Below are positions 29,004 to 32,655 of a DNA stretch of 64,000 nt, piece after piece. The DNA comes from Anaeromyxobacteraceae bacterium (GTDB taxonomy: Bacteria > Myxococcota > Myxococcia > Myxococcales > Anaeromyxobacteraceae), in the NCBI GenBank assembly GCA_047602405.1, contig JASGHJ010000001.1:224001-288000 (forward strand). Reading direction: 5' to 3'. The notes under the pieces are model-generated. The model searched no databases. It had not been told where the DNA came from and saw only the letters and a list, made by a program, of their open reading frames with translations. Position 1 is the first letter of the stretch. Each line of letters opens with the position of its first letter. A program made the translations under genes and the position numbers.

Positions 29004-29204
29004 ATGTGGAACAAGTGCAGCGTCTGCAAGCAGCCGATCGCGTACGGCGCGCCGTACCTGAAGTGCGCGGTCTCCACCTGCAACCGGAAGAGCTTCCAGC
29101 TCTACTTCTGCTCCGACGCCTGCTGGGACGCCCACAACCCCGACCAGAACCATCGCAACCCGGCGTACACCGAGCACGTCGCGCCCAAGGCGCCGGGGGT
29201 GTGA
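29004..29204 (+). CDS. Small Cys/His-rich putative zinc-binding protein
   Basis: CSVC..CAVSTC..FCSDACWDAH; TAGACT -10 six nt upstream; strong GC3. Confidence 0.75.
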   Translation: MWNKCSVCKQPIAYGAPYLKCAVSTCNRKSFQLYFCSDACWDAHNPDQNHRNPAYTEHVAPKAPGV

Positions 29205-29791: not shown

Positions 29792-30469
29792 TCACCCGAA
29801 TGCGTCGGAGCGGGGATCCCAGAAGTCGCCCGACAGGCCCAGGCCCGAGAAGATCGCCCGCATCTCGTCCGGCTGGGGTCGCCTGGAGCTCTCCTCGAGG
29901 CGGGTCGCGTACCAGGTCGTCGCGAGCGTCCAGAGCTGGGGCATCGTCACGATCGGCCGCACCGGGCTCCCGGCCGCCTCGCACCACTCGTGAACCCGTT
30001 CTTCCGACCGGAAGAAGAGCATGTTCCTTCAGGTGAAGACGATGTCGTCCCACCACCTCGCCGCCGGGACGAGGCAGTGGAAGAGCCAGTCCGAGCGCGC
30101 GGGCCCGTCGGCCCCCACCTCGAGGTGGAGCGGCTCGCCCGACCGCTCGCAGCGGGAGTGGACCGTGCCCGGCCGGCGCAGCGCGGCGGGGACGCCCAGG
30201 GCGTCCCAGGCGCAGTTGGCGAAGTAGCGCACCCCGCCGGACTCGACGGCGTGCTGGGTCGGGACGCCCGAGAACGGGGAGGCCATCCGGATCGAGCGGC
30301 CGTCCGGCTCGAGGACGAGGAGGCGCTGGGCCCGGAGCCTCGGGTAGGCCTCGAGCACGTCCTCGACGTTCGTGCCGACCCGCCCGGCCACGTCCCCCGG
30401 AGACGGCGGCCCTCCCGTCTCCGCAAAGTGCCGGTAGATCGCCAGCTTCACCTGAACGTCGAAGTCCAC
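29792..30469 (-). CDS. MerB-like organomercurial/organometal lyase, probable selenoprotein (in-frame TGA at 30029-30031)
   Basis: PFSGVPTQH, ANCAWDA, SRCERSG, then FT-TGA-RNMLFFRS in the same frame; GTG start with gggagggg RBS. Confidence 0.85.
29999..30016 (-). promoter_or_regulatory. Candidate bacterial SECIS hairpin
   Basis: Minus strand TTCTTCC-GGTC-GGAAGAA, starting 12 nt after the TGA, G-initiated apical loop. Confidence 0.75.
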
Positions 30470-30596
30470 GGCCCCTCCCGGCGCGGCGCGCGACGCCAGC
30501 CTTCCACACCGGTCGAGGCGCGGCAACGGTGACGACGGGTTCGTGGGTCGGCGACGATCCCGAGATCTCGCGGGTCGCGTTCCGAGGGACGCGAGC

Positions 30597-31370
30597 TCAG
30601 CGCGCCTTCTTGCCGGTCACGTAGCCGATCTGCACCGCGCCCAGCGAGAGGATCCTCGGCAGCCAGGAGAGGAGCGTCTGCACGCTGCGGGCCGCGTCCT
30701 TCTCGCCGTCGAAGCCGGCGTCGCGCAGCGTCCTGGCGTACTGGCCGAGGTGCCGGACGTCGACGATCAGCACGCGCCCGCCGACCTTCAGCACCCGCGC
30801 GATCTCGCGCACGGCGGTCTCTCGCTCGCCGGCGTCGTAGATGTTGTGAATCGCCGCGCTGGAGAGCACGACGTCGAAGCTCCTGTCGTCGAAGGGCAGC
30901 TTGCGTGCGTCGGCCGTCTGCACCTCGACGCGCTCGGCCACGCCTTCGATCGCCGCGTTGTGCAGCGGCGCCGCCGGCTGGTTGCCGCTGAGATCCTCGG
31001 CTTGCCAGATGTCGATGCCGATGGCCCGGCCCGTGCTCAGGCGCCTCGCTGCCCCGACCAGGAACAGCCCGCGCCCGCAGCCGACGTCCAGCACGCGCTC
31101 GTCGCCGCGCCATTCGAGCAGGTCGAGATACGCCTCGCGCTCGCGGACCTTGCCGAACTTGCTCGACCAGATCATCCAGGCCGCCATCACGCCGCAGGAC
31201 AGGCCTGCCGAGATCAGCGGGCGGCCGAGCAGCGCGAAGGGCGACTCCCCGTTCCACAGACCCGCCGCCCGCGTGATCAAGGAGAGGATCCCGAGCGCGC
31301 CCACGATCAGCAGGTTGCGGACCACGGGCGGCGCATCGAGGCCGTAGTCGGCGCGCGGGGGTCTGGTCAT
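30597..31370 (-). CDS. Membrane-anchored class I SAM-dependent methyltransferase
   Basis: DYGLDAP, two TM helices, VLDVGCGRG, LPFDDRSFDVV, RVLKVGG. Confidence 0.88.
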   Translation of the reverse strand: MTRPPRADYGLDAPPVVRNLLIVGALGILSLITRAAGLWNGESPFALLGRPLISAGLSCGVMAAWMIWSSKFGKVREREAYLDLLEWRGDERVLDVGCGRGLFLVGAARRLSTGRAIGIDIWQAEDLSGNQPAAPLHNAAIEGVAERVEVQTADARKLPFDDRSFDVVLSSAAIHNIYDAGERETAVREIARVLKVGGRVLIVDVRHLGQYARTLRDAGFDGEKDAARSVQTLLSWLPRILSLGAVQIGYVTGKKAR

Positions 31371-31869: not shown

Positions 31870-32655
31870 ATGATCACCGGCCTCGCCTTGCTCGCCCTCG
31901 CCATCGCCCCGGCGGACGTCGCGTCCCTGTCGGAGCGAGCGCAGCCGACGGTGGTGAAGCTCGTCGCCGAGGACGCCCGCGGCCAGGAGGAATCGTCGGG
32001 CACGGGCTTCTTCGTCTCTGCAGACGGGCGCATCGTCACGAATCACCACGTCGTGGAGGGCGCCAGCCGGCTCGTGGCCCTCGTGCAAGGCGGACGGAGG
32101 CTCGCCGTCGTGGGCGTGCTCGCGCGCGACGAGGGCTCCGATCTGGCAGTGCTTCAGGCCGAGGCGGGCAGCTACCCGTTCCTGACGCTGGGAGGTGACG
32201 AGTCGCTCGTGGTGGGCACGCCCGTGGCAGTGATCGGGAGCCCTGTCGGCCTGGAGGGCACGCTCTCCACAGGCATCGTGTCCGCGATCCGCAAGAACGG
32301 GACGGATATCCACGGCGAGCAGAAGGCGAGCTGGCAACTGCAGATCACCGCCCCCATCTCGCCCGGATCGAGCGGCTCTCCGGTGCTGCTCGAGGACGGT
32401 CGGGTGGTGGCCGTGGCGGTCGGCAAAGTACTCGGCGGAGAAGGGTTGAACTTCGCCATTCCGGCGACGCTCGCGACGGCCTTGCTGGCCCGCGTGGCCC
32501 CGGGCGCGAAGCCAGAGCCGCTCCACGCGAGCACGGCGCTCGTCCGCAACCTGGCGATCTCGGCCGTGTTCTTCCTCGTCATCGCGGCCGGCTTCCGACT
32601 TGGTCGTCGGACAGGCAGGGGTCGCGACGAGACGAGGTCGACCGCGCGTCACTGA
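31870..32655 (+). CDS. Trypsin-like (S1C) serine protease with C-terminal TM helix
   Basis: GTGFFV, TNHHVV, DLAVL, ISPGSSGSP. Confidence 0.9.
   Translation: MITGLALLALAIAPADVASLSERAQPTVVKLVAEDARGQEESSGTGFFVSADGRIVTNHHVVEGASRLVALVQGGRRLAVVGVLARDEGSDLAVLQAEAGSYPFLTLGGDESLVVGTPVAVIGSPVGLEGTLSTGIVSAIRKNGTDIHGEQKASWQLQITAPISPGSSGSPVLLEDGRVVAVAVGKVLGGEGLNFAIPATLATALLARVAPGAKPEPLHASTALVRNLAISAVFFLVIAAGFRLGRRTGRGRDETRSTARH

Follow-up and report, generated by a model that had tools for sequence, protein, structure and literature searches.

A predicted Thr-selenocysteine subfamily of stand-alone MerB-fold proteins, encoded by genes in which an in-frame TGA occupies the MerB Cys159 position

The organomercurial lyase MerB (EC 4.99.1.2; PDB 3F0O, 3F2G and 1S6L) breaks bonds between mercury and carbon; it uses Cys96, Asp99 and Cys159 as its catalytic residues and has a further, structural cysteine, Cys117. 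In MerB2 of Bacillus (PDB 5C17), which is part of a mer operon, there is Ser at the Asp99 column, and the second cysteine is preceded by Thr. A related protein containing selenocysteine (Sec) has been published as SaoL, where Sec is found at the Cys159 column as a CU motif, in a nine-gene SAO locus of strict anaerobes (Haft & Gwadz, bioRxiv 10.1101/2022.07.06.499078, accessible text). Among the 119 families in a 2026 inventory of prokaryotic selenoproteins, which counts differing Sec motifs as separate subfamilies, SaoL is the sole MerB-like entry (PMC13188914). An 'organic mercuric lyase MerB2' is also named in PMC7435645 (accessible part) and in the supplement of PMC5029168, for 17 organisms. 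This catalogue 'MerB2' is apparently SaoL, because one accession, WP_238493467.1, is common to two reviews, being the MerB-like entry in the accessible part of PMC9312934 and labelled SaoL in that of PMC13188914. The accessible parts of PMC2398784, PMC12013277 and PMC13326102 do not mention MerB. No description of a MerB-like selenoprotein with a Thr-Sec (TU) motif was found in the literature and catalogues searched, a set that stops short of the BSepDB family list and of some supplements.

The gene described here lies in a stretch of 64,000 nucleotides from an Anaeromyxobacteraceae bacterium (contig JASGHJ010000001.1, positions 224,001 to 288,000), referred to below as the window, whose own numbering is used for the gene. 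A sequence-only reading of this DNA had proposed that ORFs 30029..30526 and 29792..30022 are parts of one Sec-containing protein of about 225 residues. Both ORFs are on the minus strand in a single frame, and translation with TGA read as U gives an unbroken protein that runs through the junction WWDDIVFT-U-RNMLFFRSEE and terminates at a TGA at 29794-29792; the same junction can be written WWDDIVFT-TGA-RNMLFFRSEERVHEWC, with the TGA at 30031-30029. The start is likely to be GTG 30469 rather than TTG 30526, since a GGAGG motif precedes it and most homologs start at the same column. This start gives 225 residues with U at position 147, in agreement with the length first proposed. The features are as follows.

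30474..30478, minus strand: GGAGG Shine-Dalgarno-like motif, 4 nt 5' of GTG 30469 (from the sequence)
29792..30469, minus strand: read-through gene from GTG 30469 to TGA 29792, 225 codons plus stop if TGA147 is selenocysteine
30284..30469, minus strand: predicted winged helix at the N terminus (residues 1-62), a domain that MerB also has (secondary structure of the model; LexA/DtxR-type matches)
30203..30214, minus strand: Cys86-Ala-Trp-Asp89, equivalent to MerB Cys96 and Asp99 (alignment to 3F2G)
30149..30151, minus strand: Cys107, equivalent to the structural MerB Cys117 (alignment to 3F2G; kept in 79 of 80 homologs)
30029..30031, minus strand: in-frame TGA, codon 147, aligned with MerB Cys159 and preceded by Thr, the TU motif (alignment and homolog conservation)
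29999..30016, minus strand: SECIS-like hairpin with a 7-bp stem, the GGUC loop starting 20 nt past the UGA (sequence and conservation)
29795..30028, minus strand: coding segment after the TGA, 78 codons, with the remaining MerB domain and a Trp/Arg-rich conserved tail (Pfam and invariant columns)

By score and predicted fold the protein is a member of the MerB superfamily (PF03243). The Pfam MerB profile matches the read-through protein at 87.8 bits, against a gathering cut-off of 27, over positions 1-125 of 126, with positions 1-80 matching before the TGA and 87-125 after it. The AlphaFold2 model, calculated from 69 read-through sequences, has a pLDDT of 95.9, and all of its 11 Foldseek matches at E<=0.001 are MerB or MerB2. 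VIA-align likewise places it closest to 5C17 (Z 18.6, rmsd 3.1 over 187 residues), followed by 3F2G (Z 14.8) and then by winged helices, those of LexA, DtxR and MntR matching residues 1-62 with Z of 7-9. In the sequence alignment C86, D89, C107 and U147 fall on MerB C96, D99, C117 and C159, and the assignment to Cys96, Asp99 and Cys159 made at the outset therefore holds by sequence as well as structural alignment. The structural alignment to MerB ends at residues 192-195; the tail beyond it (approximately residues 193-225) is conserved, and this tail and eight invariant Trp residues are absent from canonical MerB.

Despite the shared fold (TM 0.62-0.64), the equivalents of Cys96, Asp99 and Cys117, and a second ligand at column 159, the protein is not a canonical MerB. 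It has about 22% identity to MerB, Sec in place of Cys159, the extra C-terminal tail and no merA, merR or merT; it falls well short of the canonical MerB cut-offs (53.9 against 193 bits for NF009710, 44.9 against 200 for NF033555); and MerA was above cut-off in only 3 of 50 homolog hosts, with at most 25 candidates scored per genome. Bacillus MerB2 is the best match in both sequence (E 4.6e-10) and structure and shares the Thr before the second Cys, but it has Ser at the Asp99 column and a mer operon, where the protein described here has Asp and Sec. Nor is it SaoL. The two have in common the MerB fold, the retained Cys and Asp, Sec at the Cys159 column and truncation in databases, whereas the present protein has TU rather than CU, is encoded alone with no conserved locus, is found in hosts that are not the strict anaerobes of SAO, and reaches only 38.1 bits with the SaoL model NF040728 against a cut-off of 140. 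A SaoC profile search of the genome was blank, and its control was likewise without signal. The 69 aligned members match only NF009710, NF033555 and NF040728, with a best E of 3e-13 for SaoL, and no NCBIfam model covers the subfamily at its cut-off. What we describe is thus a large stand-alone Thr-Sec subfamily absent from the catalogues searched, the principle of a Sec-containing MerB being already known from SaoL. The sequence-only reading had rightly pointed to Sec-containing MerB relatives in other lineages.

Relatives were collected by a scan of GTDB genomes, which gave at least 503 confirmed relatives among 600 candidate stretches. The best 80 of these loci were kept; they come from 79 genomes and, judged by record title, from at least ten phyla. 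Every one of the 80 shows TGA at the MerB Cys159 column with Thr immediately 5' of it, and all 80 conserve Cys86 and Asp89. The terminal stops of the same genes are mixed, with 32 TGA, 26 TAA and 22 TAG. Because the TGA is common to all 80 homologs, sequencing error is very unlikely as its source. Protein databases reflect the same codon: when 150 representatives were taken after clustering at 50%, 71 stop exactly at the residue preceding the TGA, while 38 have Cys across the column, 3 have Trp and 5 some other residue; the rest are C-terminal pieces (4) and other partial matches (29). Of the 120 closest database proteins, 116 stop at the Thr before the UGA (one at Ala) or are otherwise cut there, and the clusters retrieved from the ESM Atlas consist solely of these 146-residue truncated proteins. 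At the DNA level, Cys counterparts are represented by seven TGC loci in the sampled genomes of Gemmatimonadota. Homologs thus show TGA or Cys here, and the similarity extends to either side of the column. Asp89 is retained in 69 of the 71 truncated (presumed Sec) clusters, compared with 20 of the 38 Cys clusters. Three DNA sequencing runs (shares 0.06-0.09) contained short pieces of relatives only, the runs X1 and X2 resembling one data set, and no evidence is drawn from them.

The sequence-only reading had pointed to a perfect 7-bp stem with a GGTC loop, beginning 12 nt past the TGA. It is present as described, with TTCTTCC (30016-30010) facing GGAAGAA (30005-29999) across the GGTC loop at 30009-30006. 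Across four windows its stability is ordinary compared with shuffled sequences (z from -1.32 to +1.03), and in the minimum-energy folds of the 82-nt and 99-nt windows its bases have other partners. On the other hand, genome-wide only 443 of 89,125 TGA triplets (0.5%) have a Watson-Crick stem of at least 7 bp with a G-first loop 16-24 nt downstream. What is decisive against chance is conservation, namely the TGA in 80 of 80 homologs together with synonymous sites that are frozen at hairpin codons 152-155: TTC in 80/80, TTC in 80/80, CGG in 79/79 and TCG in 79/80. At conserved residues with four- or sixfold degenerate codons elsewhere in the gene, the commonest codon accounts for 74% at most across the 80 homologs. 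The sole exception among the frozen codons, in locus L060, is a double change that turns the closing C-G pair into A-U and retains the stem. In 33 chosen sequences the stem is paired in 97.8% of cells, against 48-74% in slid control structures; covariation in the same sequences is thin, with 22 of 500 shuffles reaching the observed level.

The hairpin recurs in most of the 25 further TGA loci from the Gemmatimonadota sample, where 21 have GGTC in register with 4-9 pairs and in the remaining four the GGUC tetraloop is replaced, as judged by eye, by a loop of 6 nt on a 6-bp stem. Three of the seven TGC loci likewise form 5-7 pairs, but with other loops. In the Cys forms the R-S-E residues encoded here are relaxed, being kept in only 13, 19 and 15 of 38, which suggests that the RNA constrains these residues in the TGA forms. 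The hairpin resembles the fdh-type bacterial SECIS in its short stem and apical GGUC about 19-20 nt past the UGA, and the three fdh genes of the host that have an in-frame TGA show a GGUC or AGUC stem-loop 18-19 nt past the UGA. It differs in being encoded by F-F-R-S-E-E codons and in having a tetraloop, whereas two of the host fdh genes fold with a loop of 5 nt. The hairpin of the host selD has a different appearance. A bacterial SECIS search had been proposed as a check on the hairpin; the hairpin is under synonymous selection, and Rfam gives no SECIS match here. In the surroundings of the gene, scans with Rfam and for promoters, terminators and tRNAs returned nothing relevant.

The host genome (98% complete) has selA, selB, selD and tRNA-Sec (selC), all above cut-off, so that the Sec machinery anticipated for it is present; selD itself has an in-frame TGA. 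The contig with this gene also carries selB (C1:301733-303655) and selA (C1:314866-316233, genome G000), at distances of about 47 and 60 kb and just outside the window, and this nearness is probably coincidence. Homolog hosts were tested in 50 of the 79 genomes, chosen favouring longer contigs. SelA is above cut-off in 44 of these 50 and tRNA-Sec in 42, with neither found in two metagenome-assembled genomes; a general bacterial rate of 21.5% is available for comparison (PMC5029168). Co-occurrence with SelA is however a weak discriminator in these lineages, because SelA is above cut-off in 161 of 201 sampled genomes of Gemmatimonadota anyway, which greatly exceeds the bacterial average (the sample includes one unpublished genome, G468). 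The TGA form is carried by 23 of the 201 genomes, all with SelA, these being kin and hence non-independent; four carriers have TGC forms only, and two of those are without SelA.

On this comparative evidence TGA147 is very likely recoded as selenocysteine in the host, and the non-Sec readings are very unlikely even when combined. The only serious alternative is re-initiation. Here the TGA would be a true stop, leaving either a pseudogene or a coupled gene pair with re-initiation at ATG 30022. An ATG is indeed found three codons past the TGA in 78 of the 80 close homologs, the host copy has AGGA just 5' of ATG 30022, and gene callers annotate such C-terminal ORFs. However, among the 80 homologs the codon is always TGA and never TAA or TAG; the ATG is replaced by an Ile or Leu codon (ATC, ATT or CTC) in 11 of the 25 further TGA loci and in four loci of the host's family; and a Shine-Dalgarno-like motif precedes codon 150 in 3 of 80 cases, compared with 34 of 80 for the true starts. 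A split at this point would moreover delete the catalytic residue itself, and the Cys orthologs are continuous. We therefore regard a true stop as highly improbable. Reading of the UGA as Trp or Cys, through an altered code or leaky read-through, is less probable still: the W at this column in 3 of the 150 representatives and in P0005 would fit it, but these cases are probably gene-caller code-4 calls, the tRNA-Sec is the only tRNA with a TCA anticodon found in the host, the gene itself ends in TGA, as do 32 of the 80 homologs, and Trp would remove the catalytic ligand.

A Pfam MerB search shows this to be the only MerB-domain gene in the host genome. No MerA was found in the host above cut-off (the control was detected), and HgcA was not found there. 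The absence of merA, merR and merTP remarked upon for the window extends to the homologs, where no mer genes are present among the 146 nearest ORFs searched with Pfam; the neighbours are a scatter of unrelated families. This set goes back to 152 nearest ORFs, chosen heuristically, from which six that were redundant or overlapping were left out. There is no conserved neighbourhood, the largest shared neighbour cluster being found in 7 of 81 loci. In the host, a SAM methyltransferase gene of the same orientation lies upstream, separated from this gene by 128 nt, and on the other side a gene for a 154-residue hypothetical protein is convergent with it. The methyltransferase is of class I (window 30597-31253, minus strand), and its best NCBIfam matches are ArsM-type and far below cut-off. 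A link to arsenic through this upstream gene was considered and rejected, because of these low scores and because the methyltransferase falls outside the recurrent neighbour clusters.

Lineage-specific novelty, which the sequence-only reading had suggested, was not borne out. Judged by its homologs, the gene belongs to a large subfamily that spans phyla and is seldom seen in that of the host, where 4 of 201 genomes have any match; among 92 genomes of the host's family the clade is in the host only, the next best match having 35% identity. Subfamily hosts belong to Acidobacteriota, Gemmatimonadota, Verrucomicrobiota, Chloroflexota, Eisenbacteria and others, and are mostly soil-type bacteria. 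In a quick tree of 108 rows, constructed without SaoL, the protein is in a clade with SH-aLRT 98, its nearest rows coming from Acidobacteriota, Planctomycetota and Gemmatimonadota, and nine mer- or MerR-linked MerBs are separated (SH-aLRT 98); Cys and truncated forms are interleaved with weak support. Horizontal acquisition by the host is likely.

By analogy with MerB, on which the lyase mechanism is modelled (PMC10114901, accessible text, where selenium-mediated chemical demethylation is also described), the stand-alone 225-residue protein is rather likely to cleave the metal-carbon bonds of an organometal or organometalloid. SelB would bind the GGUC hairpin, and Sec-tRNA would decode the UGA. 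In the folded protein, the Cys86 thiolate would bind R-M+, the Sec147 selenolate would act as second ligand and weaken the M-C bond, and Asp89 would protonate the leaving carbon to give R-H. Given that MerA is usually absent, the freed metal might be passed to small thiols or retained as a metal-selenolate, steps that are weakly indicated. A selenolate would raise the affinity for soft metals, and would aid capture of a soft-metal substrate present in traces; Hg-Se bonds would, on the other hand, be hard to turn over. If the protein is a lyase, methylmercury or an aryl-mercury is the leading named substrate candidate, a tentative choice. Against a lyase, the identity to MerB is only 21-24%, and where MerA is lacking, harm is to be expected from the Hg(II) released (PMC8261052). 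It is more speculative again, and in our view doubtful, that the Thr-Sec MerB-fold subfamily constitutes a mer-independent, selenium-dependent demethylation route for trace methylmercury and related organometals.

The same residues could serve other functions. The selenoprotein may be a stoichiometric trap or chaperone for soft metals (Hg, Cu, Ag, Cd) instead of a multi-turnover lyase: most hosts lack a MerA partner, binding of further metals, Cu among them, is described for MerB variants (bioRxiv 2022.07.06.499078 and PMC8261052), MerB2 is the nearest structure, and Cys replaces Asp in 12 of the 38 Cys clusters. We consider this unlikely, in that all 80 close homologs and 69 of the 71 truncated clusters keep the catalytic Asp, and genes for metal transport or metalloregulators are not among the recurrent neighbours. 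Equally unlikely is a role in which Cys86 and Sec147 form a selenenylsulfide redox pair, or supply a nucleophile, for a non-metal substrate in a Trp-rich pocket. A redox function is presumed for the majority of bacterial selenoproteins (PMC13188914), the eight invariant Trp and the C-terminal tail are not those of a canonical MerB, and the gene is widespread in bacteria without mer context; yet the full MerB catalytic signature is kept, including the Asp and the structural Cys, and there is no recurrent thioredoxin-like or reductase partner (two AhpC/TSA proteins among the 146 neighbours). Finally, the match of residues 1-62 to the LexA/DtxR/MntR winged helices, with a weak match to Sigma70_r3, would be compatible with a metal-sensing DNA-binding protein. 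MerB structures align across this same N-terminal region, however, and no conserved target gene is adjacent, and a regulator is accordingly very improbable. The MerB-like lyase is thus the function that we prefer.

The TU subfamily would be an addition to the 2026 inventory, since SaoL is the only MerB-like entry there and differing motifs are counted separately; the surprise is limited by the fact that Sec at this site of the MerB fold is already published for SaoL. Surveys of merB discard sequences without Cys159 (PMC8261052 and PMC12874090, accessible text), and annotated products of this clade end one residue before that column. The clade is therefore filtered out, and mercury-gene surveys would likely miss these genes. 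The authors of the same two surveys describe MerB without MerA as unexplained and still to be tested, and a stand-alone Sec-MerB in soil phyla would allow this to be examined on a concrete protein that can be expressed. In addition, the natural Sec/Cys pairs permit a direct test of the role of selenium in metal-carbon cleavage.

It is worth adding that other MerB-like forms were encountered. Three genomes of the host's family contain a different MerB-like gene (L013:1501-2100 in G072, L014 reverse in G019 and L017 reverse in G045) that has TGA at both the Cys96 and Cys159 columns and keeps the Asp. Another single-TGA MerB-like branch, of about 25% identity and long in the tree, is present in two genomes of the same genus (L011:1495-2154 in G035 and L012:1501-2136 in G031); it has Glu at the Asp column (CGFE) yet the same GGUC hairpin. 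An intact Cys form of the wider family (CAWC, TC) is found on megaplasmids of the Ralstonia solanacearum complex (L099:4995-5672) with no mer genes nearby; there are 98 plasmid records by genus, and the record that was fetched annotates fragments.

Two other ORFs of the window may be mentioned. The 66-residue ORF at 29004-29204 (plus strand) has CxxC, CxxxxC, CxxxC and HxxxxxH motifs and no NCBIfam match near cut-off, and could possibly be a small metal-binding protein. The ORF at 31870-32655 (minus strand), by eye a trypsin-like serine protease, has a GC3 of 0.72 compared with 0.92-0.99 for its neighbours, and is possibly a recent acquisition.
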